A DNA stretch of 64,000 nucleotides from Candidatus Omnitrophota bacterium (GTDB lineage: Bacteria > Omnitrophota > Gorgyraeia > Zapsychrales > Zapsychraceae): contig JADFYE010000004.1 of NCBI GenBank assembly GCA_015233195.1, positions 66,411 through 130,410 on the forward strand, read 5' to 3'. Position 1 is the first letter of the stretch; every line of letters begins with the position of its first letter. The notes beneath the pieces were generated by a model. It made no database searches and was not told the DNA's origin. It worked only from the letters and a program-made list of their open reading frames with translations. Shown here piece after piece: positions 1,465-43,357 of the stretch. Both the position numbers and the translations under genes were made by a program.

Positions 1465-2180
1465 TGTATAAAGGAAAAAAAATTATTGCGATTATCCCGG
1501 CGCGGGGAGGCTCAAAAGGTCTTCCTCAAAAAAATATTCTGCCAGTCGCTGGTAAACCTTTGATTGCGTATTCTATAGAGCAAGCTTTAGCGTGTCCATA
1601 TATTGACCAGGTGCTCGTATCAACCGATTCAGCAGAGATCGGTGATATTGCGAAAAAATATGGAGCAGAAGTGCCATTTTTACGTCCAGCTCATCTGGCT
1701 TTGGATAAAAGCTCAACCATGGATGTACTTTTGCACGCGGTCACATTTTTGGAGGAACACGGGGAAAAATTTGAGGTGATGGTTCTTTTGCACGTAACTG
1801 CGCCGTTAAGGTCAGTTGATGATATCAGCAATTCAATCTCAATGCTGGTGGACGGTGATTATGATGATGTGTTTTCCGTATCAGACGCGCATCGAAGCCC
1901 GTATTTTAATATGGTGGAGAAAAAAGATCACTTTTACGCGCCCGTTATATCTACGGATTTTGTTTCACGTCAGCAGACTCCGCAGGTTTATGATCTTAAC
2001 GCGTCTATTTATGTTTGGTGGGTTGAGGTATTTAAAAGATCGCCTAAAGTCTATTTACCGAAGAGCGGAGTGTATGTTATGCCCAAAGAACGGTCGGTTG
2101 ATGTTGATGATGCTTTTGATTTTTTTATGGTGCAATGTTTGATGGATCACAAAAATCATGAGGGTAACCATGGTGAGTGA
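1464..2180 (+). CDS. Acylneuraminate (nonulosonate) cytidylyltransferase family protein, CMP-sugar synthetase of NeuA/LegF type
   Basis: N-terminal IIAIIPARGGSKGLPQKNI motif of the CTP_transf_3 family. Length is 238 aa. TAATG start/stop overlap with the upstream gene. Confidence 0.8.
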   Translation: MYKGKKIIAIIPARGGSKGLPQKNILPVAGKPLIAYSIEQALACPYIDQVLVSTDSAEIGDIAKKYGAEVPFLRPAHLALDKSSTMDVLLHAVTFLEEHGEKFEVMVLLHVTAPLRSVDDISNSISMLVDGDYDDVFSVSDAHRSPYFNMVEKKDHFYAPVISTDFVSRQQTPQVYDLNASIYVWWVEVFKRSPKVYLPKSGVYVMPKERSVDVDDAFDFFMVQCLMDHKNHEGNHGE

Positions 2181-24733: not shown

Positions 24734-24745
24734 GGAAGATAATTT

Positions 24746-25822: not shown

Positions 25823-25827
25823 TTATT

Positions 25828-26829: not shown

Positions 26830-26903
26830 TTTTATAAGCTGGGCATAGCGCGGTTAAAATATTTTTTAAAATATGGTAGAAATTAGAACGGAGGAATTGC
26901 CGC

Positions 26904-27899: not shown

Positions 27900-29072
27900 A
27901 TGAAAATATTGATCGCGCATAATTATTATTTGGAACCTGGAGGAGAAGACCGGGTATTTTTAGCTGAGGTTGAACTTTTAAGGTCTCATGGGCATGAAGT
28001 GCGGACTTATGAAGATAGTAATAAACGCATTTCAAAATTAAGTAAATGGAAAACTGCTTTATCCTTTATTTGGAATAAAGAATCAGCATTGAGATTTGGT
28101 CAAGCGTTGGACGAGTTTTCTCCTGAGGTGGTGCATTTTCATAATACTTTTCCTTTAATTTCTCCTTCGGTTTATTATGAATGCAGTAAACGAAAAGTAC
28201 CTGTAGTGCAAAGTTTGCATAATTCCCGTCTTATATGTCCGGCAGCCAGATTTTTCCGTGATGGAAAATTATGTATGGAGTGCGCAGTTAAGCGGTCTTT
28301 TTGGTCTGGGGTAAAATATAAATGTTATCACCAATCAAGGCTACAAACTTTTTTGGTTGGTTTTATGAGTTGGTGGCATAGGCGCAGGGGTACTTGGAAT
28401 AAGCATATTAATGCGTATATAGTTTTTTCAGAATTTTATAAGCAAATTTTTATAAAATGGGGATTACCAAAAGAAAAAATTTTTGTAAAACCGCATTTTT
28501 TGATCAATGATCCTGGTTGCCGTCCAGAAGGAACATTGGGAGAATTTGCTTTATTTGTCGGACGTTTTTCAGCGGATAAAGGTCTGCGGCGTTTATTGAA
28601 TTCTTGGTTAAGGCTTAAGGATATTCCTTTGATGATTATTGGTGATGGGGAAGACCGTTCTTATGCGGAAGATTTTATTCGTAAACATTCGTTAAAAAAT
28701 ATTAAACTGCTCGGAGCACTTTCAAATGAAGAAGTTATTTCTTACATGAAACGCAGTAAATTTGTAGTAGTACCGTCGGAAGTGGCTGAAACTTTCGGAT
28801 TGGTGGTTTTAGAGGCTTTTGCCTGCGGGGTACCAGTGGTTGCTGCAAAAGTCGGAGCATTGCCTGAGATGGTCAAAGAACGGGGTAATGGCAGACTTTT
28901 TATGCCGAGTAATGGTCAGCAAATGATTGAGATGATATTAGGTATAGTCAGTGATCCACAAAAATTATTGGCGTTAGGTGAACAGGCAAGAAAGACGTTT
29001 GAAAACCGGTATTCAAAAGAAAAAAATTATCAGCAATTATTGGAAATTTATATAAAGGTGGGGGGAAAATGA
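27900..29072 (+). CDS. Glycosyltransferase family 4 (GT-B, group 1)
   Basis: MKILIAHNYY...GGED N-terminus. C-terminal EX7E motif in PSEVAETFGLVVLEAFACGVPVV. Confidence 0.85.
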   Translation: MKILIAHNYYLEPGGEDRVFLAEVELLRSHGHEVRTYEDSNKRISKLSKWKTALSFIWNKESALRFGQALDEFSPEVVHFHNTFPLISPSVYYECSKRKVPVVQSLHNSRLICPAARFFRDGKLCMECAVKRSFWSGVKYKCYHQSRLQTFLVGFMSWWHRRRGTWNKHINAYIVFSEFYKQIFIKWGLPKEKIFVKPHFLINDPGCRPEGTLGEFALFVGRFSADKGLRRLLNSWLRLKDIPLMIIGDGEDRSYAEDFIRKHSLKNIKLLGALSNEEVISYMKRSKFVVVPSEVAETFGLVVLEAFACGVPVVAAKVGALPEMVKERGNGRLFMPSNGQQMIEMILGIVSDPQKLLALGEQARKTFENRYSKEKNYQQLLEIYIKVGGK

Positions 29073-30544
29073 TAAAAGTTTTTACTGCAGTCAGAAAGTC
29101 TTATGAAACTATTTATCCCTGGTTATTTTTTGCTTATATTTTTTGTTTGATGTCGTTTGGTCGAGCATTTTTGGTCTTGTCTGTTTTTAAGCTATGGGTA
29201 CCTTTATTTGTTACGGAATTCTTTTTATTAATTTCTTTACCATATATTTTTATAAATCGAAAATTATTAAGTGAACTGCCTTCAGTAATTAAGTGGGTTG
29301 TCGGCTTATTTTGGTTACAAGCAATAATTCATTTCATAGTACCAATATCAGAAGGAAATCTTTTTGCTTTAAGAGATATTGTTTTTTGGGGATATCCGCT
29401 TTTTTTCTTGTTAGGTTTTATGATGTTTAGAGAACAAAAATATTGGTATAAGTTTTTTATTCTTATTTTAGTTGGAATGACATTTGTAATAATTGAAAGC
29501 CGGTTTTTTATGTTAACTCAGCCGATATTTCAAGATTCACGTATGATAATACCGTATTTTAATTCTTTCTTCACCATTATTCGCGGATTTCATCTAACAT
29601 TTTTTTTGGGATTAGGGATTTCATTTATTACTGGATTTTATTTTTTTGAAAAAAATCGGATATTCCGATTCTTTATGCTTTTCTTATTGTTATTTGGATA
29701 TTATTTAGTAGTAATAATGTTATGTCGGTCAGCATGGGTTGGTATGTTAGGATGTTTACTTGTTTCCGGAGCTGTTTTGTTAAAGTTTTCGGTACGATTG
29801 AATAAATCTTGGTTGATTTTATGTGGTTTATTAATTTTGCTAGTATGCATTTTTGATTTCAATATTGGAGATCCAGGAACTGCAGCATTAAAAGGAAAAA
29901 TTAGCAGTTTGTCCGAACTTAGTTTACGAACTTTGAATTTAGTTGAAAAACCGGAAAATAAAGGTTTTGTTCAAATAAAAGAAAATAACAAAAAAAGAAA
30001 TGAAGTTAAATATTCTGAAAAAATTAATGATAACACGAATATTGAAAATGTTGTTTTTGACAAAACTAAATCAGTATCGGTAGCTACTGCTAATTGGCGT
30101 TATTTAATCTGGTCTCAAGGTATAGAATTTGGTTTACAATCTCCAATCTGGGGTAAAGGGTTTGGAGTTTATCCTCAATATCATTATTCAGATGGTAGTT
30201 TAATGACGGAAATCAAGGGCTTTGGTTTGAACTCTCGCATAATTCCTTCTCATAATTTTTTAATAACCGTATTTTTTAAAATGGGTATTATCGGCTTATT
30301 TTTGGTATTGATGTTTTTTGGTTTTATTTTTAATAAAGCCTGGGATTTTATTAAGCAACAGAAAGTTATCGGAGATATTCGGTTTGCTATGGTTTTATCG
30401 TTGTCCCTTTGTTTATTATGGTGGGTTCTGATCGGATTATTTAGTGATATGATCGAATCGCCGATTAATGCGGCATTTCTTTGGTTATTATCGGGAATGT
30501 TTTTTTCGATACCAATGAAAAATAGGAGCGGTGATGGGATCTAA
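29069..30544 (+). CDS. O-antigen ligase/polymerase-like (Wzy_C domain) polytopic membrane protein, copy 1
   Basis: 491 aa with more than 10 hydrophobic helices. CRSAWVGMLG, and a large loop followed by IPSHNFLITVFFKMGIIG, as in the O-antigen ligase domain. Confidence 0.6.
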   Translation: MIKVFTAVRKSYETIYPWLFFAYIFCLMSFGRAFLVLSVFKLWVPLFVTEFFLLISLPYIFINRKLLSELPSVIKWVVGLFWLQAIIHFIVPISEGNLFALRDIVFWGYPLFFLLGFMMFREQKYWYKFFILILVGMTFVIIESRFFMLTQPIFQDSRMIIPYFNSFFTIIRGFHLTFFLGLGISFITGFYFFEKNRIFRFFMLFLLLFGYYLVVIMLCRSAWVGMLGCLLVSGAVLLKFSVRLNKSWLILCGLLILLVCIFDFNIGDPGTAALKGKISSLSELSLRTLNLVEKPENKGFVQIKENNKKRNEVKYSEKINDNTNIENVVFDKTKSVSVATANWRYLIWSQGIEFGLQSPIWGKGFGVYPQYHYSDGSLMTEIKGFGLNSRIIPSHNFLITVFFKMGIIGLFLVLMFFGFIFNKAWDFIKQQKVIGDIRFAMVLSLSLCLLWWVLIGLFSDMIESPINAAFLWLLSGMFFSIPMKNRSGDGI

Positions 30545-31556
30545 AATATTAAGAATTATTACAGTATGGATTTTATTTTTTTGTGCTGCAGGTTCTATTA
30601 CGTATTGGGCTATCGCAAAATATAAAGTTAGTGATGATTTCAGGGCGGTTAAGGATGCTCGTTCATATATTCAAATGAGCTTGGGTAATTATATCGATAT
30701 TGAGTCGCGTTATACAAAGCGGTTTTTGATGCCTGAAATAGTTGGATTATTAAATAGGAATTTACATGTTACGGAATTTTTGGACAAATATTATGAGAAT
30801 GTAGAAGAAAAAGTAATCCAATTGAATTTTGGTTTGGTAAATATCTTATTTATTACATTTACAGCTTTTGTATTTTATTTATTTTGTAAAGATTTGGATT
30901 TTTCAGAAATGGAAAGTTTATTGGCTGGGTTTTTATTTATTACATCATTTAATGTTGTCACATATTTTACCGTACCTTTAGTAGATTCAGCCGGGTGTTT
31001 TTTTGTTATGGCTTGTTTTTATGCTCTTAAACGAAAAAATTGGTTTGGATTGGCGTTGTTTTTCTTATTGGGATTAATGACTAAAGAGTCAACTTTTGTG
31101 GTTGTATTAATGGTCATGTTGGATAAAGGTAAAATTGAATGGCGTAAATGGGCAGCTTTGGTTCCGGGTATTGTTGCTTATTTTTTTATCCTTAGTTTTT
31201 ATGGGGGAGTCAGTAGGGGCGGTGTAAATGTTTTACAAATAATTACACATTTTGATTTATTGCAGGCATCAGTTCAGCAAGGGTTAAGCTCTTTTAGCAT
31301 ATTTACGATTATTGAATGGATTCAAACGTTTTTGTTTATGTGGGTATTATTTATTTATGGTCTTTTAAAATGTCGTATTCCTGAATTTTTAAAATCGCAA
31401 GCTTGGTTGATGTTTTTACCATTTATTATGCCGTTCACGGTAGGTGAGTCTAGCGTTGGAAGAGTGTCTTTCTATTTATTTCCAATTGTTATTTGTATTT
31501 CGCTATTAGCATTGCGAAAGATTTTAAATACTGAAAGCTTAGAAAATGTTAAATAA
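30531..31556 (+). CDS. Polytopic membrane protein, possible GT-C-like glycosyltransferase
   Basis: 341 aa with about 9 hydrophobic helices. Acidic VSDDF motif just after TM1. No family assigned. Confidence 0.35.
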   Translation: MMGSKILRIITVWILFFCAAGSITYWAIAKYKVSDDFRAVKDARSYIQMSLGNYIDIESRYTKRFLMPEIVGLLNRNLHVTEFLDKYYENVEEKVIQLNFGLVNILFITFTAFVFYLFCKDLDFSEMESLLAGFLFITSFNVVTYFTVPLVDSAGCFFVMACFYALKRKNWFGLALFFLLGLMTKESTFVVVLMVMLDKGKIEWRKWAALVPGIVAYFFILSFYGGVSRGGVNVLQIITHFDLLQASVQQGLSSFSIFTIIEWIQTFLFMWVLFIYGLLKCRIPEFLKSQAWLMFLPFIMPFTVGESSVGRVSFYLFPIVICISLLALRKILNTESLENVK

Positions 31557-32991
31557 AAATAATACTGAGACGTGGAATTTAAATAAAATCGCAGGATTTA
31601 TATGGTTTTTACCTATATTAGTATTTATTTTTATTATTTTTATAGGTCGGTGGTCGTGGGGGTTAATGGATGACTTTCAATTATTAAATCAGCCGGGTAA
31701 TATTTTAGAACGTTTTAATTTTTTTATGAAAGGGTATGGTAATTTTGGGGAATTTAAACCAGTGTATGTATTTTATGTGAGTTTTTTTTATCCGTTGTTT
31801 GAAAATTTTGTACAATTTTTTTATGTGTTTAAATTAGGATTGGCTGTATTGTCCGTCTGGATATTTGGGCACAGTGCTTACCGTTTGACTAAAAATAAAA
31901 TAAGTATTTTATTTGTCGGTATAATTACATTTTCTTTCCCATATTTTTACGATACTTTTGTTTATCTTTCCAGTCATGAAATATTAGGGTTAATTTTTAC
32001 TGGATGCGCGTTTTGGGTGTGGTTAAATTGGATGGATGCGGTTGATAATATAACAGTTTCAACACCAAAAATATGGTTAAATTGGTTGTGGGTAGTGTTT
32101 TTTGTTTTTTTGGCTGCTTTTGCAAAAGAAACTTTTTTGGTTTGTGGTATAGCTTTTGCGGGTGCTATGTTTATCTTGGCTTGGTGTTCGCGCTCAAAAA
32201 GAACTGGAATTGTATTCTTACAATCTATAATTTTGTTTTTGATATTTTTATCATATGGGTGTTTATTGAAATTTGGGGTGCAGCGGTCTTACACCTCTCA
32301 TTATCAGTTGAATAATTTTACGACTATTGCGTCTAATTTATCCGCATGGATAAAGAAAGATTTCATTGTTCATATACCATGGTTATTAGTTATGTTTTGT
32401 TTTTTTATTTCGAATTTTAATTTTTGGCGTAGTTTTTCAAAACAAATGTTGTCTGGTATAGCGGCGGGGATTTTGTTATACATTTGTTATTTGTTAATAT
32501 TACTTCCTTGGGTGACTACCAGTTATTATGCTGCTCCGTTAGGTATATTTTTTGCTTTTGTAGTAGCTATGGTTTTGACTGTAATATGGGAAAATATAAG
32601 TTTGCCGTTTAAGAAATGTTTGTTGGCTATAATGTTTTTATTAAATGCCACAGTATGCTGGTATGTAATTGGACGGGAAAATCGGTATCAGAATGATACC
32701 AGGTTGTTAAAACAATGGTTGATTGCTAATGAGAAAAATTTTCGGCAGGGTAGCGAAATACCGCTTTGGACTAATGCTATGGAAGCTGGAGATGCAATTC
32801 CTGGTTTTATAAATTTAGACAATGTTATACAGTTAAGGCATTTTGCTTATTCGTCGAGTTTAGAATCGATTAAAAATAGTTTGCAGGGATATTATTTATA
32901 TTCACCCAGGTTTGGTAAAATACCTGCTGATAGTTTTGGTCAATTTGAAAAAGTTTTTTCGAGCCGTAATTGGATATTGCTGCGCAAATAA
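31546..32991 (+). CDS. Polytopic membrane protein, possible GT-C-like glycosyltransferase
   Basis: 481 aa with more than 10 hydrophobic helices. WGLMDDFQ acidic motif after TM1. C-terminal soluble region of about 100 aa. Confidence 0.4.
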   Translation: MLNKNNTETWNLNKIAGFIWFLPILVFIFIIFIGRWSWGLMDDFQLLNQPGNILERFNFFMKGYGNFGEFKPVYVFYVSFFYPLFENFVQFFYVFKLGLAVLSVWIFGHSAYRLTKNKISILFVGIITFSFPYFYDTFVYLSSHEILGLIFTGCAFWVWLNWMDAVDNITVSTPKIWLNWLWVVFFVFLAAFAKETFLVCGIAFAGAMFILAWCSRSKRTGIVFLQSIILFLIFLSYGCLLKFGVQRSYTSHYQLNNFTTIASNLSAWIKKDFIVHIPWLLVMFCFFISNFNFWRSFSKQMLSGIAAGILLYICYLLILLPWVTTSYYAAPLGIFFAFVVAMVLTVIWENISLPFKKCLLAIMFLLNATVCWYVIGRENRYQNDTRLLKQWLIANEKNFRQGSEIPLWTNAMEAGDAIPGFINLDNVIQLRHFAYSSSLESIKNSLQGYYLYSPRFGKIPADSFGQFEKVFSSRNWILLRK

Positions 32992-33008
32992 TGATCGAGG
33001 AGGATGGC

Positions 33009-33764
33009 ATGTTATTTATTGTTATACCGGTTTACAATGAAGAACAAAACATTAAATATTTGATGGATTCTTTACGGCAAAATTTAAAAGACGTGGAATA
33101 TAAAATAGTGGCAGTTAATGACGGCAGTCAGGATAGTTCTTTAAAATTGTTAGAGGGGTTGCAGACGGCGGATCTAGTTATCATAAGTTCTTTGATAAAT
33201 ATGAATGTTGGAGCGGTATTTTCTGCAGGTATTGATCGGGTATTACAAGAGGCAAATGATAATGATATTTTGATAATCATGGAGGGTGATCAGACCAGTG
33301 ATGTTAAATTGATCAAACTTTTTGTTGAGGAGATTAATAAAGGGCAGGACATTGTGATTGGGTCTCGACATAAACTCGGCGGCGCATATGTTAATTTCCC
33401 TTTTTTGCGGAGAGTATTTAGTTTTGGCGCTAATTGGATGATGCAAAAAATTTTTCCTATAACTGGAGTTAAGGATTATACGATATTTTTCAGGGCATAT
33501 AGAACAAGAATATTAAATCAAGCAGTTAAGATGTATGGAAAATTTGGTTTGATTCAGTCTAAAGGTTTTGTGGCTAATGCGGAGTTGTTGATAAAGTTAT
33601 CTTTATTGACTAATAACATCGAGGAACTGCCGTTGGTATATAATTATGGGAAGAAGAAGGGGGCAAGTAAGATCAATGTTTTTAGGACGATAAATGAATA
33701 TTTTGTTTTAGTAAATTATATGAAACGGATATTTGTAAAAGTTAAAGCGGTTAATAAAATATAG
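33009..33764 (+). CDS. Glycosyltransferase family 2, polyprenyl-phosphate glycosyltransferase (Dpm1/GtrB/ArnC-like)
   Basis: MLFIVIPVYNEEQNI and VNDGSQDSS, about 250 aa. ATG 33009 is preceded by GAGGAGGA. The 32970 extension is unlikely. Confidence 0.7.
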   Translation: MLFIVIPVYNEEQNIKYLMDSLRQNLKDVEYKIVAVNDGSQDSSLKLLEGLQTADLVIISSLINMNVGAVFSAGIDRVLQEANDNDILIIMEGDQTSDVKLIKLFVEEINKGQDIVIGSRHKLGGAYVNFPFLRRVFSFGANWMMQKIFPITGVKDYTIFFRAYRTRILNQAVKMYGKFGLIQSKGFVANAELLIKLSLLTNNIEELPLVYNYGKKKGASKINVFRTINEYFVLVNYMKRIFVKVKAVNKI

Positions 33765-33787
33765 GATATGGTTTTAGGAGAATATAA

Positions 33788-35185
33788 ATGACTTCTTTGG
33801 CTGAACACTATGATAAATTGGCTTTGAAAAGAGATGCGTATAAAAGTAAGCATAAGTATTATTATTCGCTTCTTTATAAGCAATATCGGTATTTTATTCC
33901 TGACGGTAAAAAAGTTTTAGAAGTTGGATGTTCGACTGGAGATCTTTTAAACGCGGTTAAACCTAGTTTGGGTCTGGGCATTGATATTAGCGCAGAGACT
34001 ATTAAAATAGCTAAACATAAATATCCGCATTTAATATTTGAAACTGCAGAGGTAGGCACACTTAAATTACGAGAACAATTTGATTTTATTATTTTATCCG
34101 GAGTCTTGGGAGAGGTTGAAGATATTCAGAAACTGCTGGAGCAGTTAAAGCCTTTTTGTCATAGAGGTACAAGGATAATAATTGAATATTACAGTTATTA
34201 TTGGCAATATATTTTGAAATTTGGCGAAATGATGTGGTCGAAGATTCCGCAAAAGATTCAGAACTGGGTAACTGCTGAAGATTTGTTGAATTTTTTTGAG
34301 TTAGCAGGTTATGAGCCTATACAGCAGGAAAGAGCGATTTTATTGCCTTTTAATATTTGGGGAATAAGTTATCTGATCAATCGTTTTATAGCAAAACTTC
34401 CAATCATAAATACTTTGACTTTAAATCATTTTTTTGTAGTTCGACCAATAATTACTACAAAAGAAGAATTATCAGTCAGCATTTTAGTCCCTTGCCGGAA
34501 TGAAAAAGGTAATATTGAGTCTGCAGTAACTCGGACACCAGTATTTGGTAAACATCAGGAGTTCATGTTCGTTGAAGGTCATTCAAAGGACGGGACTTAC
34601 GAGGAAGTGGAAAGGATCATAAAAAAATATCCGAATAAAGATATCAAATTATTCCGCCAGCCCGGCAAAGGAAAAGGAGATGCTGTTCGTTTTGGGTTTA
34701 ATAAGTCATCAGGTGATGTTTTAATGATCTTAGACGCTGATCTTACGGTTGCGCCTGAAGAATTGCCTAAATTTTATGACGTAATGCGGGATAATCGGGC
34801 GGAATTTGTCAATGGATGCAGGCTGGTATATCCTATGGAATCTGAAGCTATGCGTTTTCTGAATTTGTGTGCTAATAAGTTCTTTGGATTATTTTTTTCT
34901 TGGTTGTTGGGACAAAGATTCCGCGATACTTTATGCGGTACAAAAGTAATTTCCAAAAAGAATTATGAAGAACTGGCAGCAAATCGTGCATATTTCGGTG
35001 ATTTTGACCCATTTGGAGATTTTGATTTGATATTCGGAGCTGCAAAAATGAATTTGAAGATTATGGAATTACCGATACGCTATAGAAGTAGGGCGTACGG
35101 CACTACTCAGATTCAAAGATTTAGACATGGTCTGCTCTTATTCAAAATGTGTTTTTTTGCGATGCGGAAGATAAAGTTTAGATGA
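33788..35185 (+). CDS. Bifunctional class I SAM-methyltransferase / GT2 (Dpm1-like) fusion protein
   Basis: N-terminal VLEVGCSTGDLL SAM motif. C-terminal SILVPCRNEKGNIE, GKGDAVRFGF and MILDADL GT2 motifs. Confidence 0.75.
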   Translation: MTSLAEHYDKLALKRDAYKSKHKYYYSLLYKQYRYFIPDGKKVLEVGCSTGDLLNAVKPSLGLGIDISAETIKIAKHKYPHLIFETAEVGTLKLREQFDFIILSGVLGEVEDIQKLLEQLKPFCHRGTRIIIEYYSYYWQYILKFGEMMWSKIPQKIQNWVTAEDLLNFFELAGYEPIQQERAILLPFNIWGISYLINRFIAKLPIINTLTLNHFFVVRPIITTKEELSVSILVPCRNEKGNIESAVTRTPVFGKHQEFMFVEGHSKDGTYEEVERIIKKYPNKDIKLFRQPGKGKGDAVRFGFNKSSGDVLMILDADLTVAPEELPKFYDVMRDNRAEFVNGCRLVYPMESEAMRFLNLCANKFFGLFFSWLLGQRFRDTLCGTKVISKKNYEELAANRAYFGDFDPFGDFDLIFGAAKMNLKIMELPIRYRSRAYGTTQIQRFRHGLLLFKMCFFAMRKIKFR

Positions 35186-35243
35186 AAAAATTTGATATTT
35201 TTTTTAATATTTATTTTTTACTTGTGACTATCGGTTATATTCT

Positions 35244-36872
35244 ATGGAGAATCGTGGTTTTTCTGGCGCGTTAATAGTTCGTCCAGCATATTTGCCAGTA
35301 GTTATGTTGCTGATAGGCACAATATGTTTTTGGATAGAACTTTTTTTTATGCCTTCAGAGTATGGGCGAACCACATGGTTGGCATGGTTTTTTTTCTTGA
35401 TTTATTCTGGATTTTCTTTTATCACGCATCGACAAGGAATAAAGGAAAGTTGGTTTTGGGGAATAGAACAGTTTAAAAATTGTTCGAAATTTGTAAAATA
35501 TTTTTTTTGGGTGATGATATTTTCCGCTTTGCTAATTTTAGTTGTAGCATTTAAACAAGCGTTGTTACCGCCGCACTTACCTCAAGAATATGATGTTATA
35601 AATTATCATTTAACCTTGCCTCGTCAGCATTTGATCCGGCATTCTTTTTCGCACATTTCTTGGTCTGTTGCTGATTTGTATTACGCGCCGTTGGATATAG
35701 CTTTAGCTCCATATTGGTTATCAACATTTTTACCAAATAAATTGCCGCAATATATGTTTATTTTTGGCTTGTTAACCGTGGCGGGATCAATAGTTTATAG
35801 ATCAACTAAAAAGAATTTTGAGGCAATAGTGTTGACGATTGCAGCTTTATTAGGTTCACATGGTTTGTGTATTCAATTTGGTACAGCGATGTTGGATGTG
35901 GTGATGTTATATCTGGTTTTAGTTGCTATTGATAGTTTGTTATCTGGGAAGTATATATTTGCGGCGCTGGCATTCACATTTTATTTGTGGTCTAAAACAT
36001 TTATTCCAATTCAATGTATTGCTGTAGCTTTAATATTTTTGATATTAAAATATTTTTTAGAATGGTTTGGGAAAGTCGAGGTAATCTGGGATAGGGGCGG
36101 TAATCTTTCTTGGAAGATTTTGCTTAAGTGGATGACTGGGTTGATGGTATTATCAATATTTATTGGCGGACCTTTTATTTATAAATCAATCTATTATACT
36201 GGAACGCCTGCATATCCGTTTTTCACAGGTATGGTGCACAATTCCCATTATCAACAGGACCAAATGAAATGGTTGGGTGTTATTAAAAAAAGTAAAGAAC
36301 TGCTAAATATAAAAGATATGTATGGTAAAGGTCGAGGCGGGCGAGAGTTTTTTGAACAGTTTTGGGTTTTGGCTGTTCCTGAAAAAGGGGTTAATAATAG
36401 ATTTGATTATCCTTTAGGTTTGCCGTATTTATTGGCGTTATTGCCATTTTTTTATTTGTTTTATAAACAGATTCAAATAGGTAAGATTGAGGCTGTTTAT
36501 TTATTTATAATTATATTTTGGGTTATTTGGTGGCTAGGATCACAACAAAGCCGTTTTTTATTTGTGCCTTTAGGTCTGATTTTGATTAGAATTTATTCTT
36601 TACCGTTAATGCGGAAGAAGATGGTATTTATTGCATTAACTATCGCTATATTTTTATGTACTTTATCTATTGTTCGAGATAATCGTCGAGATATATTTAA
36701 AAGTGGTTTGGAAGTTTTATCACAAAAAGATAGGGAGTTGATGCGCATATCCGCGACACTTGATAAAAGTAAAACGGTAAAACTCGATTTTTTGGAAATT
36801 GCGTTTGCAGGTTTTCCCGTAGATGTGGACAAAAAAGATTCTTTATTTGTTTTTAATTCATCTAATTTTTAA
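35244..36872 (+). CDS. Polytopic membrane protein, GT-C-like (ArnT/PMT-like) candidate
   Basis: 542 aa with more than 10 hydrophobic helices. Loop motif EYDVINYHLTLP resembles the loop motif WDSMTYHMP of the convergent neighbour. Confidence 0.4.
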   Translation: MENRGFSGALIVRPAYLPVVMLLIGTICFWIELFFMPSEYGRTTWLAWFFFLIYSGFSFITHRQGIKESWFWGIEQFKNCSKFVKYFFWVMIFSALLILVVAFKQALLPPHLPQEYDVINYHLTLPRQHLIRHSFSHISWSVADLYYAPLDIALAPYWLSTFLPNKLPQYMFIFGLLTVAGSIVYRSTKKNFEAIVLTIAALLGSHGLCIQFGTAMLDVVMLYLVLVAIDSLLSGKYIFAALAFTFYLWSKTFIPIQCIAVALIFLILKYFLEWFGKVEVIWDRGGNLSWKILLKWMTGLMVLSIFIGGPFIYKSIYYTGTPAYPFFTGMVHNSHYQQDQMKWLGVIKKSKELLNIKDMYGKGRGGREFFEQFWVLAVPEKGVNNRFDYPLGLPYLLALLPFFYLFYKQIQIGKIEAVYLFIIIFWVIWWLGSQQSRFLFVPLGLILIRIYSLPLMRKKMVFIALTIAIFLCTLSIVRDNRRDIFKSGLEVLSQKDRELMRISATLDKSKTVKLDFLEIAFAGFPVDVDKKDSLFVFNSSNF

Positions 36873-39093
36873 ATATAACCGCTTTATTTTGTAAAACTAA
36901 ATTTATCCATTGGTTTATTTTGTTACGACCTAAGTTGAATGTATTTTGATCCCCATTAGCCAGTCCTTGTATTTGTAATTTTAATCCTTCGATGAATAAC
37001 GTATCATAATAATTACCTAGATCAGGCAAAATTGAATTCATCTCCGACGGCAGTATGCTTTTGATTTGTTTGTTTTGATAATCCAGATATTGATATAAAA
37101 CTGTAAGGTTTTGTAATTGAGGAGGGGGATTTAATATTTGTGAAGAAATTTCTATTGAGTTTTTTAAAGTATTTATAAGGAACTGTTTTTTAAGTTGGTT
37201 GTCAGGATCAGGAAGGTATAAAGATAGCGGATATAAATATTTTACTTTTGAGAAAGTGATATTAGATTTAACGATTTGGGCTTCTCCATTATGGGTGTTG
37301 TTGGTTAGAATAGCGTCTGGAATAAAAGTACCTAAGGGATAAATTTTTGGTGAAAGTGGTATTGTTTCAAGATGTTCTATTCTAGGCGAATTTTTTAATA
37401 ATATTGCAATAGGATATTCCCAGGTTTCTCCGGATAAGCCTAAGCCAAGGTTTCTGATTTTTAGGTTATTTATAGTGTTAGCCATGTCTTGATACGGAAA
37501 AGCTAAATCAGGTTTGTTAGAAAAGTATTGATCAATTCTGGCTATTTTAAAAATGTTTTTATTTGTCCCAAGAATTTTTTTTGAACTATTTTTAAAAGTC
37601 ACTGGCATCGCAAATATAAATGCGAATAGTAGCAAGGTTATTTGTATAATTTTGTGGGTGCGTGAAGTTAGAATTAAAGTTATTAATGGCATGCAAAATA
37701 GAAACCAGGGAGTTTGTAGGCGAGAAACCCAGGGTTGCCATTTTAGCAGGTAGGCAAACATTATCCAGGCAGCAAGAATTGAAAATAAATAAAACCAAAA
37801 AGTTGGTTTAGGTGCAGAGGTATTTTTTATGAAAGACCAGAAACATACGAATCCAAAAAGTATCAGGGTCATATGGATCGGATTTGGAGCAGTGTCTTCA
37901 TGTTTAGTGGCAGAAGTCAAAGCAAATTTGTAATCTGCAAATGTGTTTCGATTGTCTACAATTTTTACTCCTATTAGCGAATGAATGGATTGGACCGCAT
38001 TTTCAATTTGCATATTTAAAGGTTTTATTGAGTAATTAAGATGTAAAGCGGTATTTTTTATGATGTTTGATAAAATTAATTGTGGTTCATGAGATTGATT
38101 GACAACTTCTTTGGTGTCGCATTTTCCTGGATCTATAAAATCTTTTCCTAATGTATAATTACGTAAATATAATCCTAAATTAATACTTATGAAGAGCAAG
38201 GTTCCAGCTATTAAATAGATAATGGCGTTAAGTTTGTATTTTTTAAATATTGATAATGTATACCAGCCCAGGAATGGACACAAAAAAATTAAAGCGGAAC
38301 TTTTAGTTAGAGCTGCCAAACCTGCAGCTATCCATATAAATACATGAAATATTCTGGATGAATCGTTTAATTGCCGGATTATAAAATAAATGCAACTTAA
38401 GACCAAGAAACCGCATATAAGATCATTTTGAGTGCTGGATGATTGCAGGATTGCCATTGGTATAGTAGCAGTTAATAATGCGCATATTATTTGTTGCAGT
38501 CTGGAACCGTAAAGTTCTTTAACTATCAAAGAATTAAGTATTATAGAGCTTATAAACGCTATCCATTGGGGCATATTTGCGAATCTATCTCCGTGGGATA
38601 AGATTTGAAAATGTAAAATGATTAATTCAGCAAAAGGCGCGGACCAGAGTTGGCGTGATTCTGGGGTAGGGTAATAAATTAAACTTTTGTTTTGTATCCA
38701 ATGCATGACTTTAGGCATATGATAAGTCATTGAATCCCAAGTATTTGGAGGAGCTAGGAGCGCTATTATAAGAGTAGGAATGATGATAATGAATATACCG
38801 GCTATACTAGATATTTCAAAAAAAGATAAATTTTTAGGTTTTATAAATGTAATTGAGCGTTTGGTTTGTAGAAAAAGATTTAACATAAGTATAAAACTGC
38901 ATAACCAGAGAAGACTTATGCTAAAATAAGTAATTCCTTTTATAAGGCTAAGAATTTCAGTTGATATCGATAAAAAAAGTCCGCATATCAATATTGCAAT
39001 TATAAAATTTTCACGCAAGCAGGAGATTTTTCTGGTATTGTATAAAAATAAAAATAAAAGCGCGAAAGTAAGAATGGGAAGAATAATAAGCAT
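36862..39093 (-). CDS. Large polytopic membrane protein, GT-C-like (ArnT/PMT-like) candidate with a C-terminal soluble domain
   Basis: 743 aa. The N-terminal 480 aa or so are polytopic, with PPNTWDSMTYHMPKVMHW in the first large loop. Soluble C-terminus. This is the second of only two minus-strand genes, and it overlaps its convergent neighbour by 11 nt. Confidence 0.45.
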   Translation of the reverse strand: MLIILPILTFALLFLFLYNTRKISCLRENFIIAILICGLFLSISTEILSLIKGITYFSISLLWLCSFILMLNLFLQTKRSITFIKPKNLSFFEISSIAGIFIIIIPTLIIALLAPPNTWDSMTYHMPKVMHWIQNKSLIYYPTPESRQLWSAPFAELIILHFQILSHGDRFANMPQWIAFISSIILNSLIVKELYGSRLQQIICALLTATIPMAILQSSSTQNDLICGFLVLSCIYFIIRQLNDSSRIFHVFIWIAAGLAALTKSSALIFLCPFLGWYTLSIFKKYKLNAIIYLIAGTLLFISINLGLYLRNYTLGKDFIDPGKCDTKEVVNQSHEPQLILSNIIKNTALHLNYSIKPLNMQIENAVQSIHSLIGVKIVDNRNTFADYKFALTSATKHEDTAPNPIHMTLILFGFVCFWSFIKNTSAPKPTFWFYLFSILAAWIMFAYLLKWQPWVSRLQTPWFLFCMPLITLILTSRTHKIIQITLLLFAFIFAMPVTFKNSSKKILGTNKNIFKIARIDQYFSNKPDLAFPYQDMANTINNLKIRNLGLGLSGETWEYPIAILLKNSPRIEHLETIPLSPKIYPLGTFIPDAILTNNTHNGEAQIVKSNITFSKVKYLYPLSLYLPDPDNQLKKQFLINTLKNSIEISSQILNPPPQLQNLTVLYQYLDYQNKQIKSILPSEMNSILPDLGNYYDTLFIEGLKLQIQGLANGDQNTFNLGRNKINQWINLVLQNKAVIFKN

Positions 39094-39116
39094 ATTTATA
39101 ATTATATTTTAATAAA

Positions 39117-39145
39117 TTGAATTTATTTTTAGATTGTTGTATATT
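39117..39145 (+). promoter_or_regulatory. Candidate sigma70-type promoter for the 39178..47404 block
   Basis: TTGAAT (39117-39122), a 17-nt spacer, then TATATT (39140-39145), about 30 nt upstream of ATG 39178 in a divergent gap. AT-rich context, so support is weak. Confidence 0.3.
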
Positions 39146-39177
39146 ATCAAAAAATTAAACGTTGAGAAAGATATATT

Positions 39178-39906
39178 ATGAAATTAAGCATCTTGATGTC
39201 GGTTTATAATGAGGAACGGTGGTTACCGCTTATTATACCTAAAGTATTGGCGCAGAAGGTAGAAGGAATAAATGAGGTTGAATTAATTATCGTAGATGAT
39301 TGCTCTAAAGATAGTACGGCAAGTATTATAAAATCTTTTGTAGAAAGATATCCTGTAAATATCCGTAACTTTACTAATGAAGTTAATCAGGGCAAAGGTT
39401 CTTCCATTAAGACTGCAATTTCAAAAGCCAGCGGGGATATTTGTGTGATCCAAGATGCGGATCTGGAGTATGACCCGTCTGAATACCCGAAGATTTTAGA
39501 ACCTATAATTCAAGGTCGAGCTGATTGTGTGTTTGGTTCAAGATTTATGGGCAGTGAAGCAAAAAGGGTTTTGTTTTTTTGGCACTCTGTGGGTAATAAA
39601 TTTTTGACTTTATTGAGCAATATGTTTACGAATTTAAATTTAACTGATATGGAAACCTGTTATAAAGCTTTTAGAACTGATTTATTAAAATCGATTCCTT
39701 TAACTTGTCGGCGCTTTGGATTTGAACCTGAAATAACTTCAAAAGTTGCTAAAAGAAGAGCCCGTATTTATGAAGTTGGAATAAGTTATAATGGTCGTAC
39801 TTATGCTGAAGGGAAAAAGATTAATTGGCTGGATGGAGTTAAAGCTATTTTCTGTATTATATGGTTTGGTTTAACCGTGAAAACACAAAATGATCGAAAA
39901 ATTTGA
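39178..39906 (+). CDS. Glycosyltransferase family 2, Dpm1-like polyprenyl-phosphate glycosyltransferase with a C-terminal TM helix
   Basis: LSILMSVYNEE, IVDDCSKDST and VIQDADLEYDP motifs. C-terminal hydrophobic stretch AIFCIIWFGLTV. Confidence 0.8.
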   Translation: MKLSILMSVYNEERWLPLIIPKVLAQKVEGINEVELIIVDDCSKDSTASIIKSFVERYPVNIRNFTNEVNQGKGSSIKTAISKASGDICVIQDADLEYDPSEYPKILEPIIQGRADCVFGSRFMGSEAKRVLFFWHSVGNKFLTLLSNMFTNLNLTDMETCYKAFRTDLLKSIPLTCRRFGFEPEITSKVAKRRARIYEVGISYNGRTYAEGKKINWLDGVKAIFCIIWFGLTVKTQNDRKI

Positions 39907-40639
39907 TTTGTTCGGCGTGAGGGTTTCAATAACTGACTTGGATCGTTCAGCAAAGCAGATTCAAGAGTGGGTTAAAAATAAATATAAAACATATGTTTGT
40001 GTGGCTCCAGTTGCTACGATTGTTGACGCGTTTAAAGACGAAACGTATAGAAAGATTGTTAATAACGCGGGTATGGTTACGCCTGACGGTGTGCCTATAG
40101 TATGGATGGGTAAAAAATATGGATACACTGATATAAAGCGTACGTGTGGTCCTGATTTGATGAAATTAGTATGTTCTTTTACCGGGTATAAACATTTTTT
40201 TTATGGCGGGGATGATCAGCTATTAAAAAATTTAGCTGCTAATTTAAGAATTTTATATTCTGATATAAAGATAGCTGGATCATATGCTCCAGGTAAATTG
40301 AGGGTTGGTGAAAAAGAATCCGCGTCTGTTATTGAACAGATCAATGCTTCTGACGCGGATATTTTATGGGTGGGGTTAGGTTCGCCTAAACAAGACATTT
40401 GGATGGCGGAGCATAGGGCTGAATTGAATGTTCCAGTAATGGTTGGAGTTGGAGCGGCTTTTGATTTTTTAGCAGGAGTAAAAAAACGTGCGCCGTTATG
40501 GATGCAGAAAATCGGATTAGAATGGTTTTATCGTCTATGTTCAGAGCCGAAACGTTTGTGGAAACGATATCTTTGGGGGAATTTAATATTTTCTGGTTTA
40601 GTAATTCGAGATGTTTTTAAGTTTAGGAAAAATCAATGA
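39890..40639 (+). CDS. WecB/TagA/CpsF-family glycosyltransferase (GT26)
   Basis: VTPDGVPIVW, GLGSPKQDIWM, VGVGAAFDFLAG and LEWFYRL motifs. Confidence 0.85.
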   Translation: MIEKFDLFGVRVSITDLDRSAKQIQEWVKNKYKTYVCVAPVATIVDAFKDETYRKIVNNAGMVTPDGVPIVWMGKKYGYTDIKRTCGPDLMKLVCSFTGYKHFFYGGDDQLLKNLAANLRILYSDIKIAGSYAPGKLRVGEKESASVIEQINASDADILWVGLGSPKQDIWMAEHRAELNVPVMVGVGAAFDFLAGVKKRAPLWMQKIGLEWFYRLCSEPKRLWKRYLWGNLIFSGLVIRDVFKFRKNQ

Positions 40640-42060
40640 AACGACAAATTGAAAAAGTATTTATAAGTCTGGTATATATCATGTTTGATATAGTATCAGC
40701 ATGTTTGGCAATATATTTGGCGTGTTGGTTAAGAGCCAATGGTTTGTTTTTTGAAGTGAATTTTTATAATTTATTTTGGGGAGACGTAAATCCTTTCAGA
40801 TATGTTTTTGCGTTTTGGGTATTTTCAGCGGTTCTTACAAATATTGCCCGGGATTTGCATAAAACTCGGCGGGAGTTGATGCCGGGCGTGGAAATGTTTT
40901 ATATAGTACAATCAGTTTTGATCTCGTCGATTATGCTGGTGGTTTGTATTTATGTTTTTAAGATAAAAGAATTTCCTCGCGGGGTCTTTTTTATCGGGAT
41001 GTTTTTAAATTTCATATTTTTTACAGTATGGCGTTTTTTGAAACGTACCATTGTAAATTTTTTAGTAGCTGGCGGTTATAATAATTTTAATGTGGTAATT
41101 ATAGGCGCAGGAAAAGTTGGTAAGACTTTGTATGAAGAAATTGTTAGAAGACCTGAATTAGGAATTAAAGTAATTGGTTTTTTAGATGATACCAAGACCG
41201 AGTCTCCAGTCATTGATGGTCCGCCAATTTTAGGTAAAGTTTCGGATCTCAAAGTAATAGCTCGTCAAGAATTTATAGATAAAATATTTATAACAACTTT
41301 TTTAGATAGTAAAATTTTTATTAAGGTAATGGAAGTCGCCAAAGCTCTTAATCTTAATATTAGAGTGGTGCCTTTTGGGTTTGAATATTTATCCCATGAA
41401 GTAGAAAAATATAATATAGGAATAATTCCAGTTCTTGAATATTACAATAAGGATTTTTTAAGAAAACAATTTGGTAAGCGTATTTTTGATATAGTATTGG
41501 GTGCATTACTTTTAGTTTTGTTCTTGCCGTTATTTATTATTATTAGTTTGATGATAAAGCTGGATAGTCCTGGTCCAATTTTTCATTTTTCTTATCGTTA
41601 TGGACGAAATGGCTGGAAATTTTTTATGTTTAAATTCCGGAGCATGGTAAAGGATGCTGAAAAAGAATTAATAAAATATAAACATCAGAATGAAGTTGAT
41701 GGACCTATTTTTAAATTAAAGAATGATCCTAGAATAACTAAGATCGGTAAATTTTTGCGTAAGTATAGTATTGATGAATTGCCGCAATTGATTAATGTGA
41801 TAAAAGGGGATATGAGTCTGGTCGGACCTCGGCCATTCGTGGTACAGGAAGTAGAAAAACAAGATTTGTTGCAGTTAAAGCGGTTAGAGGTTCGTCCAGG
41901 TATGACTGGTTTATGGCAAGTACAGGGTCGGAGCGATCTTTCATTTAATCGACTGCTTAAATGGGATGTTTGGTATATAAATAATTGGTCATTTTGGTTA
42001 GATATGAATATTTTGTTAAAAACTATTCCAGTTGTGTTAAAGGGTAGAGGTGCTTATTAA
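40636..42060 (+). CDS. Polyprenyl-phosphate hexose-1-phosphate transferase (WbaP/exopolysaccharide priming sugar transferase)
   Basis: N-terminal TM bundle. Central VVIIGAGKVG Rossmann-like region. C-terminal bacterial sugar transferase domain with KRIFDIVLG, FKFRSM and DELPQLINVIKGDMSLVGPRP. Confidence 0.9.
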   Translation: MKRQIEKVFISLVYIMFDIVSACLAIYLACWLRANGLFFEVNFYNLFWGDVNPFRYVFAFWVFSAVLTNIARDLHKTRRELMPGVEMFYIVQSVLISSIMLVVCIYVFKIKEFPRGVFFIGMFLNFIFFTVWRFLKRTIVNFLVAGGYNNFNVVIIGAGKVGKTLYEEIVRRPELGIKVIGFLDDTKTESPVIDGPPILGKVSDLKVIARQEFIDKIFITTFLDSKIFIKVMEVAKALNLNIRVVPFGFEYLSHEVEKYNIGIIPVLEYYNKDFLRKQFGKRIFDIVLGALLLVLFLPLFIIISLMIKLDSPGPIFHFSYRYGRNGWKFFMFKFRSMVKDAEKELIKYKHQNEVDGPIFKLKNDPRITKIGKFLRKYSIDELPQLINVIKGDMSLVGPRPFVVQEVEKQDLLQLKRLEVRPGMTGLWQVQGRSDLSFNRLLKWDVWYINNWSFWLDMNILLKTIPVVLKGRGAY

Positions 42061-43357
42061 TTTGGATAGTTCAATAAAAGATCTTATTATACGGCGGATT
42101 GATAGCATTATTCGTTTTTTTATATGTGTTATGGTGGTTTTTTTGCCATTAGGCATAGCAGTAGTTGAGATGTCTATTGGTATATGTATATTTTTATGGT
42201 TGGTAAAGCGAATTATATTGTTGTTAAGTTGTTCAGTAAAAAATTCGAGTTGGTTAGTTTGGGTTAAAGGATTTAAGCCGGTTGATACGTCTTTAAATCT
42301 TTGGATAAGTTTTTTTCTATTATTATGTTTAGTATCAAGTTTTTTTGGAGTTCAACCATTGGTTTCGCTGCGAAGTTTTTATGGAAAAATTGTTGAATGG
42401 TTTGTTGTTTTTTTTATTATTATAGAATTTTTTGATACTAAGGAACGTATTCATCGTATTTTATATGTTTTTATCTTAATAGCGTGTATTCTTTCTTTTG
42501 ATGGGCTGATTCAGTTTTATTGGTTAAAAAAAGATGTATTAAAAGGAATAGTTCTGACGTCTTCGGGTCAGGTTTCTGCCACGTTTTCCTCAGCTAATAG
42601 TTTAGGAATTTTTTTAGCTTTAGCAATTCCGATCAGTATTGTGTTTTTGTTTGAAAGTCTTAATAAAAAAATAATTTGGTTAAATTTGCTTAGTGTAGTA
42701 TTGATGTTATGGGTTTTTGTTTTAACAGTTTCCAGAGGCGCATGGCTGGCTTTGACATTTTCAGTGATTTTAACTGGTATTACAATACCGGTTTTAACTA
42801 GTGGCAGATTAAAATCAAAGAATATTTTTATTGGTTTAGTGGGTCTATTAGTGATTGCCAGTATTTTTGTTTTAGAATCTGATTTTGCGCGAGCGCATTT
42901 TTTTCAAGAAAATACGGGTTCTCATAGGATAACTATGTGGGAAGATTCGTTTAAAATGTTAATGGATCGACCAATACTCGGATTTGGTGTAAATACTTTT
43001 ATGAAAAATTTTCAATTTTTTCGAAGGGATCCATATTATTTTTTAACTTATGCGCATAATTGTTATTTACAAATGTTGGTAGAGATTGGGATCGTAGGGT
43101 TTAGTATTTTTGTTGGTATGGTCATAGTTTATTTTAGGCGGTTGTTGCATAATTTGCGCGTATTATTTGATGAAGACAAACAAATGTTTTTGACGGGGAT
43201 TGGAGTATTTGCTAGTTTGGTAGCGTTTTTTGCGCATAGTTTTGTGGATGTAGATTTTTATAGTCTTCCTTTAGCACGTTTATGGTGGGTTTTGATGGGT
43301 ATTGGAGTGGCGATTGGTAAGTTGAGTAATAAAACGAAAATAGGGCGCTGTCCCTAA
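42050..43357 (+). CDS. O-antigen ligase/polymerase-like (Wzy_C domain) polytopic membrane protein, copy 2
   Basis: 435 aa. Contains SRGAWLALTF and YAHNCYLQMLVEIGIVGF, typical of the O-antigen ligase domain. GTG start overlapping the upstream gene. Confidence 0.7.
   Translation: MLINLDSSIKDLIIRRIDSIIRFFICVMVVFLPLGIAVVEMSIGICIFLWLVKRIILLLSCSVKNSSWLVWVKGFKPVDTSLNLWISFFLLLCLVSSFFGVQPLVSLRSFYGKIVEWFVVFFIIIEFFDTKERIHRILYVFILIACILSFDGLIQFYWLKKDVLKGIVLTSSGQVSATFSSANSLGIFLALAIPISIVFLFESLNKKIIWLNLLSVVLMLWVFVLTVSRGAWLALTFSVILTGITIPVLTSGRLKSKNIFIGLVGLLVIASIFVLESDFARAHFFQENTGSHRITMWEDSFKMLMDRPILGFGVNTFMKNFQFFRRDPYYFLTYAHNCYLQMLVEIGIVGFSIFVGMVIVYFRRLLHNLRVLFDEDKQMFLTGIGVFASLVAFFAHSFVDVDFYSLPLARLWWVLMGIGVAIGKLSNKTKIGRCP

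Follow-up and report, generated by a model that had tools for sequence, protein, structure and literature searches.

A probable Wzx/Wzy-type surface-glycan locus of an Omnitrophota bacterium with lipid-phosphate-type GT2 enzymes and candidate periplasmic GT-C glycosyltransferases

We analyzed a 64,000-nucleotide stretch of contig JADFYE010000004.1 from a Candidatus Omnitrophota bacterium, hereafter called the window, with a focus on positions 29069-39906, where the genes of polytopic membrane proteins (designated as A, B, C, F and G) are interleaved with those of family 2 glycosyltransferases (GT2; D, E and H) (Table 1). The source genes bear the locus tags HQL25_0276x to HQL25_0278x in a Candidatus Omnitrophica metagenome-assembled genome (MAG), to which they match exactly. 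Domain scans placed this region at the middle of a surface-glycan locus that spans roughly 0.5-47.4 kb of the window. In the explanation that we regard as the best one, and as probable when taken as a whole with its GT2/GT-C steps, this is a Wzx/Wzy-type surface-glycan locus in which GT2 enzymes charge lipid phosphates with sugars that are then used by periplasmic GT-C enzymes. The computations support a fold or family for each of the proteins C to H; they also support conserved loops of C and G that face outward and a conserved pairing of the C and D genes.

The region had drawn attention through an original prediction, which proposed that B, C, F and G are GT-C-like proteins served by D, E and H in several extracytoplasmic glycosylation steps. 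Every open reading frame (ORF) that it named is present where it had been placed, and B, C, F and G are all polytopic (Table 1). The proposed GT-C-like fold was borne out for C and F by structure prediction and for G by its PMT_2 match, whereas B gave only sub-threshold matches. The broader proposal of several extracytoplasmic steps is supported by fold, topology, GT2 type and the C-D pairing.

C and F, for which we found no Pfam match even at E ≤ 10 and no NCBIfam match, are predicted to have the GT-C fold rather than that of transporters. AlphaFold2 models with the family alignments as input had a predicted local distance difference test score (pLDDT) of 88.4 and a predicted template-modeling score (pTM) of 0.88 for C, and corresponding scores of 92.9 and 0.94 for F; their helices agree with the transmembrane (TM) segments counted by the simple hydropathy scan that we used for all proteins. 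A Foldseek search of the Protein Data Bank (PDB) with the model of C returned ArnT (5ezm) as the top match (E = 6e-6, TM-score 0.51), followed by DPY19, STT3, ALG3, PglB and AftA, while the model of F matched STT3 (2.9e-4), ArnT, ALG9, ALG12, PglB, Pmt4 and PimE. Transporters and G protein-coupled receptors appeared only at E > 0.1 with TM-scores near 0.1, and the candidacy of C and F as transporters was rejected. F shows no STT3 signature: there was no STT3 Pfam match at E ≤ 10, no WWDYG-type motif and no large C-terminal domain, about 65 residues following the last TM segment. Some F homologs carry a precomputed PF26626 tag, which our Pfam copy did not reproduce, and one F homolog is named 'RgtA/B/C/D-like' in UniRef.

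G can be assigned by its Pfam score to the PMT_2/GT39-like GT-C enzymes; NCBI lists its ortholog as a 'glycosyltransferase family 39 protein'. The profile of its large family (6220 representatives at E < 1e-3) matched ArnT 5ezm in the PDB (E = 9.4e-4), although the single G sequence matched nothing there. The protein ends in a periplasmic domain of about 245 residues. Its public annotation (P0164, 674 residues) begins at residue 70 of the 743-residue ORF; because homologs align from residue 1 (e.g., P0167, residues 1-742), the annotation probably begins too late and misses three TM helices. Only one other gene of the locus lies clearly on the minus strand. With C and F as predicted GT-C folds and G as a PMT_2 protein, the possibility that the polytopic proteins are transporters or Wzy polymerases only was not upheld for these three.

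The original prediction had pointed to an acidic or aromatic loop motif in each of these four proteins, and all four motifs are present. In C, the motif region after the first TM segment reads WSWGLMDD, and M41, D42 and D43 of MDDFQ are invariant in all 23 homologs found, as are K194 and E195. The EYDVINYH motif of F lies in the loop after the third TM segment, with E115, D117, Y121 and H122 invariant (44/44), and D120, Y124 and H125 of the WDSMTYH motif of G are likewise invariant (31/31). The conserved acidic residues thus stood up in C, F and G, but in the VSDDF motif of B, D35 is not conserved (2/19); D36 is found in 17 of 19 sequences and the nearby D42 in all 19, and D42, D152, K185 and E186 are present in every aligned family member. 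Scoring of the loops by the positive-inside rule predicts a non-cytoplasmic location for those that carry the conserved acidic residues in C, in G and in the N-terminal part of F. The alternate short loops of C that include the N-terminus hold 13 Lys and Arg residues versus 5 in the others, and every invariant residue examined sits in the low-charge loops; the N-terminal part of F scored 10 versus 1, with the motif loop outside, and G scored 17 versus 3, its motif loop and C-terminal domain both falling on the side with few charges. A cytoplasmic location of these loops, which would have spoken against the original prediction, is therefore not what the charge distribution predicts.

A further feature common to B, C, F and G is an Asp or Glu, invariant or nearly so, that is followed 26-50 residues on by an invariant Lys (D152/K185-E186 in B, E145/K194-E195 in C, D218/K251 in F and D224/K264 in G). 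Profile comparison with hhalign indicates that F and G are remote homologs (E = 1.8e-4, probability 49%, 287 columns), and the alignment sets PPHLxQExDALNYH of F against PPNTWDSMTYH of G in a shared PP..D...YH motif. All other pairs among the four gave probabilities of 6% or less, though B versus F and B versus G (2-6%) had the D...K(E) motif in register. Only F and G are related in this way, and the four proteins are not recent paralogs.

As for the GT2 enzymes, sequence comparison places D, E and H inside the Dpm1/GtrB/ArnC subgroup, as originally predicted, and outside every named NCBIfam orthologous group tested. The best PDB match of all three is the Pyrococcus furiosus dolichyl-phosphate-mannose (Dol-P-Man) synthase 5mlz (E = 4e-18, 1.9e-15 and 1.7e-16 for D, E and H, respectively), followed by GtrB sll0501 and then ArnC for D, and by ArnC for E and for H (6e-13 for the latter). 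The alignments to 5mlz, GtrB and ArnC cover the entire catalytic domain. The top NCBIfam models were AglJ, ArnC, PgfS, PpgS and a Dol-P-hexose transferase, AglJ being the best for E. A control GT2 of the same window (17687-18565) matched chondroitin synthase, GalT1, TarP, SpsA and PglI, with no lipid-phosphate enzyme among 25 matches, and the subgroup assignment of D, E and H is therefore specific. Their products probably differ, given that the three share only 21-27% identity. The start of D, originally placed at 33009, is ambiguous (TTG 32970, ATG 32991 or ATG 33009), and its reading frame overlaps the end of C.

E differs from the original description of a simple GT2 in that it is a fusion with a methyltransferase. 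This fusion recurs in more than 10 related loci, with the reverse order (GT2-methyltransferase) in locus L094 (3616-4998), and in L001 and L038 a separate methyltransferase gene adjoins an H-type GT2 gene. This Rosetta-stone pattern suggests methylation of the lipid-linked sugar or its precursor.

The proposed tandem arrangement of GT2/GT-C pairs was found to be conserved for C and D. Including a metagenome scan, 20 loci were informative; in 16 of them the next gene after C is a D-type GT2, at a spacing of -30 to +17 bp, and in one more an H-type GT2 follows C. The pair is within a glycan locus in most cases. It also occurs away from the F locus: in JADFXQ01 about 40 kb separate the pair from that locus (L003 versus L028), so that C-D can be seen as a portable two-gene module, and in L003 the pair adjoins a gene of the YdjC family (putative deacetylase). 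The conservation of the gene pair suggests that D would feed C.

Table 1. Genes of the glycan locus and of its surroundings discussed in this study
Feature	Coordinates	Strand	Assignment	Basis
B	30531..31556	+	341-residue polytopic protein, about 8 hydrophobic segments	Sub-threshold GT-C-clan matches
C	31546..32991	+	481 residues, predicted GT-C_A fold, 11 TM segments, C-terminal periplasmic domain	AlphaFold2 and Foldseek
D	32970..33764	+	Dpm1/GtrB/ArnC-type GT2	Pfam Glycos_transf_2, 60.6 bits
E	33788..35185	+	Fusion of S-adenosylmethionine (SAM) methyltransferase (residues ~36-180) and Dpm1-type GT2 (~230-455)	Pfam Methyltransf_23; Glycos_transf_2, 76.2 bits
F	35244..36872	+	542 residues, predicted GT-C fold, about 12 TM segments	AlphaFold2 and Foldseek
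G	36862..39093	-	743 residues, PMT_2/GT39-like, about 14 hydrophobic segments	Pfam PMT_2, 28.4 bits (gathering score 26.1)
H	39178..39906	+	Dpm1/ArnC-type GT2, 242 residues	Pfam Glycos_transf_2, 107 bits
A	29069..30544	+	Wzy_C-domain protein, O-antigen ligase/polymerase class (GT-C_B)	Pfam Wzy_C, 45.7 bits (gathering score 31.7)
K	42050..43357	+	Wzy_C-domain protein, O-antigen ligase-like	Pfam Wzy_C, 78 bits (gathering score 31.7)
I	39890..40639	+	WecG/TagA-family glycosyltransferase, acting on an undecaprenyl pyrophosphate-linked intermediate	Pfam Glyco_tran_WecG, 203 bits
J	40636..42060	+	Initiating phosphoglycosyl transferase (PGT), Bac_transf with CoA_binding_3 domain	Pfam Bac_transf, 231.9 bits
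GT4	27900..29072	+	Cytoplasmic family 4 glycosyltransferase (GT-B)	Pfam Glycos_transf_1, 118.6 bits
Wzx	2158..3657	+	Wzx-type flippase	Pfam Polysacc_synt, 71.8 bits; 13 hydrophobic segments
TPR	55813-58035		Tetratricopeptide repeat (TPR) protein, 740 residues, about 9 TM segments, C-terminal TPR repeats	

F is a conserved core gene of the Omnitrophota locus. Its family comprises at least 136 homologs, and we scanned the F alignment against one genome per species and annotated the loci with local hidden Markov models. The 73 related loci obtained are nearly all from Omnitrophota, several being labeled 'uncultured Planctomycetales', and a few distant relatives come from MAGs labeled Bdellovibrionota, Oligoflexia or Elusimicrobia. 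The recurring core consists of GT4, F, an optional H-type GT2, WecG, PGT and Wzy_C, the last often in two copies. Among the GT2s adjacent to F, 18 are H-type, and 12 of these lie immediately downstream on the same strand. In the window, the 3' ends of G and F share 11 bp; in related loci G is typically convergent with F, and an H- or E-type GT2 adjoins it in 3 of 5 loci. In 4 of 6 loci the neighbor of B is a Wzy_C gene; in the two others, L093 and L094, B directly follows an H-type GT2, which in L094 is the GT2-methyltransferase fusion mentioned above. A strict pairing of one GT2 with one GT-C enzyme was ruled out save for C-D (adjacency of 20/77 for F, 3/5 for G and 2/6 for B).

The division of roles that we propose rests on two classes of donor. 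According to a CAZy-based overview, GT-C_A families use lipid-phosphate-linked monosaccharides, GT66 excepted, whereas O-antigen ligases and related polymerases belong to GT-C_B and use lipid-pyrophosphate-linked oligosaccharides (PMC10920833). A and K, as members of the latter class, would therefore serve backbone assembly and not the steps fed by GT2 enzymes. J, I and the cytoplasmic GT4 and GT2 enzymes would build a repeat unit on undecaprenyl pyrophosphate (Und-PP), the Wzx-like protein would flip it across the membrane, and A and K would polymerize and/or ligate it. On top of this, several two-step side-branch pathways may operate. At the cytoplasmic face, D, E and H, as soluble or peripheral proteins, would each load undecaprenyl phosphate with one sugar taken from a nucleotide sugar; after flipping by some further flippase, C, F, G and possibly B would use these lipid-linked sugars in the periplasm and add them to the glycan, the conserved acidic residues of the first loops being predicted to have a part in catalysis. 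Donors in the form of lipid-phosphate sugars, the glycan as acceptor, the flipping step and any partnership of E and H with F, G or B are inferred, and the acceptor could be the glycan, a protein or lipid A.

Several observations weigh against this explanation. The NCBIfam equivalog scores of D, E and H reached at best 63-93 bits versus cutoffs of 325-529, and the C-terminal TM helices of GtrB, ArnC and the P. furiosus synthase (PfDPMS) were not seen in the hydropathy scan of these three proteins. The hydrophobic stretches of D are N-terminal (residues 3-19 and 69-85), no TM segment follows the catalytic domain in D or E, and H has a single weak C-terminal stretch (218-234). Human DPM1 and the catalytic domain of Mycobacterium tuberculosis Ppm1 are not known to have TM helices, so this feature is not universal in the subgroup. 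A scan of nearly all locus ORFs of more than 100 residues found no small flippase (GtrA, GtcA, ArnE/F or MATE), the Wzx-type gene being the sole flippase-like gene found; nor does the locus hold a small ORF with four TM segments, for which the intergenic gaps leave no room. The Foldseek TM-scores are moderate (0.33-0.51) and were obtained on predicted structures. Of the 77 cases of F, only the above 20 have a directly adjoining Dpm1-like GT2 and 41 have one within 8 kb, and many loci have the arrangement GT4-F-WecG-PGT with no Dpm1-like GT2. Lastly, B appears only weakly GT-C-like, possibly with a GT-C-type core. Its topology is ambiguous (9 versus 8 Lys and Arg residues), and its matches to PMT (6.5e-4), DUF2079 and EpsG (E of about 7e-4 to 1e-3) all fall under the gathering scores, as its match to the NCBIfam model AZOBR_p60025 (2e-8) falls far under the cutoff. 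Only 3 of 20 members of the B family matched PMT or EpsG, and the B profile matched nothing in the PDB.

These points leave room for readings that differ in the acceptor or the donor. Some of the GT-C enzymes, above all G, might be protein O-glycosyltransferases that transfer a sugar from a lipid phosphate to Ser/Thr of envelope proteins, as do PMT, PgfM and mycobacterial Pmt. G passes the PMT_2 threshold and its ortholog bears the GT39 name, its large C-terminal periplasmic domain could bind a protein acceptor, and its position is variable among related loci and on the opposite strand; the Wzy_C family, moreover, also holds protein O-oligosaccharyltransferases. However, PMT_2 spans ArnT-like and glycan-modifying enzymes as well, so the name does not fix the acceptor, all these genes lie within a polysaccharide assembly locus, and no Ser/Thr-rich candidate substrate was identified, which makes this reading unlikely in our view. 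A lipid acceptor has been considered for C-D: like ArnC/ArnT, the pair might modify lipid A or some other lipid of the envelope instead of the polysaccharide. The structural match of C to ArnT, its best one, and the sequence match of D to ArnC are in keeping with this, as is the independent movement of the pair, with the L003 copy lying outside the F locus and beside the YdjC-family gene. The ArnT likeness is nevertheless at the fold level only (11% identity), ArnA-, ArnB- and ArnD-type genes are not beside C-D in the window, and the pair is embedded in a glycan locus in most loci; we hold a lipid target to be very unlikely.

The donor of F, and perhaps that of B, might instead be the Und-PP-linked oligosaccharide made by PGT, WecG and GT4, in which case the protein would be a polymerase, ligase or en-bloc transferase of a new GT-C family. 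F is a core gene beside GT4, WecG, PGT and Wzy_C in the 73 loci, about half of which have no Dpm1-like GT2 within 8 kb, and its best fold matches include STT3 and PglB, which use lipid-pyrophosphate oligosaccharides; for B, the sub-threshold match to the Wzy-like EpsG covers most of the length, and Wzy_C is its neighbor in 4/6 loci. This reading has to contend with the short C-terminus of F and its lack of an STT3 match at E ≤ 10, the Wzy_C proteins already available as polymerase and ligase, the homology of F to the PMT_2-like G family, the H-type GT2 as the commonest immediate neighbor of F, and, for B, the H-type GT2 directly before it in L093 and L094. We assign it a low probability. A bolder version, which we likewise consider improbable, is that F represents a phylum-wide Omnitrophota GT-C family whose members belong to an obligatory core together with GT4, WecG, PGT and a WaaL-like protein, and that it is a new GT-C_A polymerase or ligase acting on the Und-PP glycan, not a side-branch transferase; together with the portable C-D pair and H-type GT2s pairing with F, B and G, it would constitute a modular periplasmic toolkit for glycan diversification. 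If true, such a toolkit would exist in a phylum of ultra-small, possibly host-dependent bacteria. The preferred explanation remains that C, F and G act on lipid-phosphate sugars charged by D, E and H.

The Wzy_C assignments of A and K made in the original prediction both stood, with scores above the gathering score (Table 1). A has about 12 TM segments and a loop of 129 residues. K gave NCBIfam matches to IctB and a putative O-glycosylation ligase, both under the cutoff, and is by synteny the conserved partner of PGT in related loci; the two Wzy_C proteins are strongly divergent from each other. The TPR protein, described earlier as a fifth GT-C-like protein, is polytopic and carries TPR repeats, and its GT-C likeness is putative: the membrane part (N-terminal 536 residues) matched none of the B, C, F and G profiles and had no counterpart in NCBIfam, among PDB sequences or in Pfam at E ≤ 10, and the stretch after its first TM segment reads EIRDLDLWLH. 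The gene is flanked by an opp-type ABC transporter and a znuA-like gene and lies beyond pgk, tpi and secG. Given these intervening housekeeping and transporter genes, it is outside the glycan locus, and its candidacy as a part of the glycan system is not supported.

The locus ends before pgk and tpi (47466-49545) and contains PGT, WecG, GT4, GT2, Wzx and two Wzy_C genes along with those of sugar-nucleotide enzymes and O-acyl and methyl modifiers. In most of the 73 related loci a GT4 gene precedes F, the position of the WecG/TagA gene (I) downstream of F is conserved, and PGT (J) is retained. In L093 (7466-9451), GT4 and WecG are fused into one protein of 661 residues directly upstream of PGT, which supports consecutive action of the two on an Und-PP-linked intermediate. 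The sugar-nucleotide genes include two cytidylyltransferases of CMP-sugar type and several epimerases and dehydratases, and the modifier genes include MBOAT and AlgX/SGNH acyltransferase pairs and FkbH-, FemAB- and FkbM-like genes. A search of the literature on Omnitrophota glycosyltransferases returned nothing about this locus.

Some of these genes hint at the composition of the glycan. The two CTP_transf_3 cytidylyltransferases and an HMGL-like/MptE-like fusion protein (1464-2180, 7663-9390, 10124-10936) suggest that the glycan includes a CMP-activated sugar of nonulosonic-acid or 3-deoxy-D-manno-octulosonic acid (Kdo) type. The block at 21624-27854, which encodes FkbH-like, polysaccharide deacetylase, DegT aminotransferase, FemAB/GNAT-like and FkbM methyltransferase proteins, suggests an amino sugar with an acyl or aminoacyl substituent. 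Two MBOAT proteins are encoded in the segments 3701-6221, 18583-21077 and 45372-46433, one followed by a single-TM protein and the other, on the minus strand, adjoining an AlgX-like SGNH protein, along with a further GDSL/AlgX-like protein; these look like AlgI/AlgJ/AlgX-type sets for polysaccharide O-acylation. B12-binding radical-SAM enzymes occur twice in the window (6235-7620 and 12847-14406), also in the glycan locus of L003, and as three tandem genes adjoining a B-family gene in L092, and might act on sugars through unusual C-methylation or some other radical reaction. Two ORFs inside the locus, 10940-12850 (636 residues) and 5088-6221 (377 residues), gave no Pfam match, and in L001 a comparable unmatched ORF of 608 residues adjoins a GT2 gene. 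Across the 64 kb, almost all genes are on the plus strand and GC skew is uniformly and strongly positive (+0.17 to +0.35 per 2 kb); the G+C content is 30-35% in the glycan locus versus about 37-41% in the flanks.

Periplasmic addition of sugars from lipid phosphates by GT-C enzymes is a main source of surface-antigen diversity and is poorly charted beyond model pathogens. The C and F families came into view through predicted structure, being invisible to Pfam and NCBIfam, and C-D is a conserved pair suited to heterologous testing. The analysis could thereby serve better annotation through new family models, supply candidate enzymes for glycoengineering and provide a basis for predicting the Omnitrophota surface glycan. 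It overturns no concept.

The scheme of GT2, flippase and GT-C enzyme is established (PMC11127046), examples being GtrABC, ArnC/ArnT, the Gram-positive CsbB/YfhO and GacI/GacL, and GT136 (PMC11127046; PMC8035078). With GtrA/GtrB/GtrC of Shigella and Salmonella and other three-component systems, including that of Citrobacter with GT136 (PMC11127046), the proposed pathway shares cytoplasmic charging of polyprenyl phosphate and periplasmic GT-C addition to a surface glycan, genes in or near a glycan locus, and adjacency of synthase and GT-C enzyme, here C-D. It differs in that the locus yielded no flippase gene of GtrA or MATE type, that the GT2s are without the two C-terminal TM helices of GtrB and one is fused to a methyltransferase, that three GT2 genes and three or four GT-C genes lie within 11 kb, and that C and F are outside every Pfam and NCBIfam model, GT136 not being among the models compared. 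ArnC/ArnT, a GT2 and GT83 pair that adds 4-amino-4-deoxy-L-arabinose (L-Ara4N) to lipid A, follows the same logic of an undecaprenyl-phosphate-monosaccharide donor; ArnT is the best fold match of C and a profile match of G, and ArnC ranks with the best sequence matches of D, E and H. Nevertheless, identity to ArnT is about 11%, the NCBIfam ArnC scores are 35-65 bits versus a 529-bit cutoff, arnA, arnB, arnD and arnEF are absent, and the context is a polysaccharide locus.

Parallel GT2 and GT-C sets acting on one cell-wall polymer are found in Gram-positive bacteria (CsbB/GtcA/YfhO; GacI/GacJ/GacL; SccN/M and PgfS/PgfM of Streptococcus mutans; PMC8035078, PMC11754754), where GT-C enzymes have likewise often been recognized only through structure prediction, but phylum, envelope and GT-C families are different, and no small partners like GtcA or GacJ were found here. 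The systems of Dol-P-Man synthase with PMT/ALG/PIG and of mycobacterial Ppm1 with PimE/Emb/Aft resemble ours in that PfDPMS is the best solved relative of the three GT2s and that Pmt4, ALG9/12, PimE and AftA are among the fold matches, although they are not clustered as operon pairs within a Wzx/Wzy locus. PglB/STT3 (GT66) ranks high in the fold matches of both F and C and shares the GT-C_A core and the acidic first external loop; F, however, has no STT3 Pfam match, large C-terminal domain or WWDYG-type motif, and the donors of GT66 are lipid-pyrophosphate oligosaccharides. Taken together, the mechanism class is known, and several parallel sets per locus have precedent in Gram-positive cell-wall polysaccharide loci. 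New in comparison with these systems are the predicted GT-C families C and F, for which Pfam and NCBIfam hold no model, the conserved placement of C and F in an Omnitrophota-wide locus, the C-D pair as a portable module, and lipid-phosphate-type GT2s that are fused to a methyltransferase.

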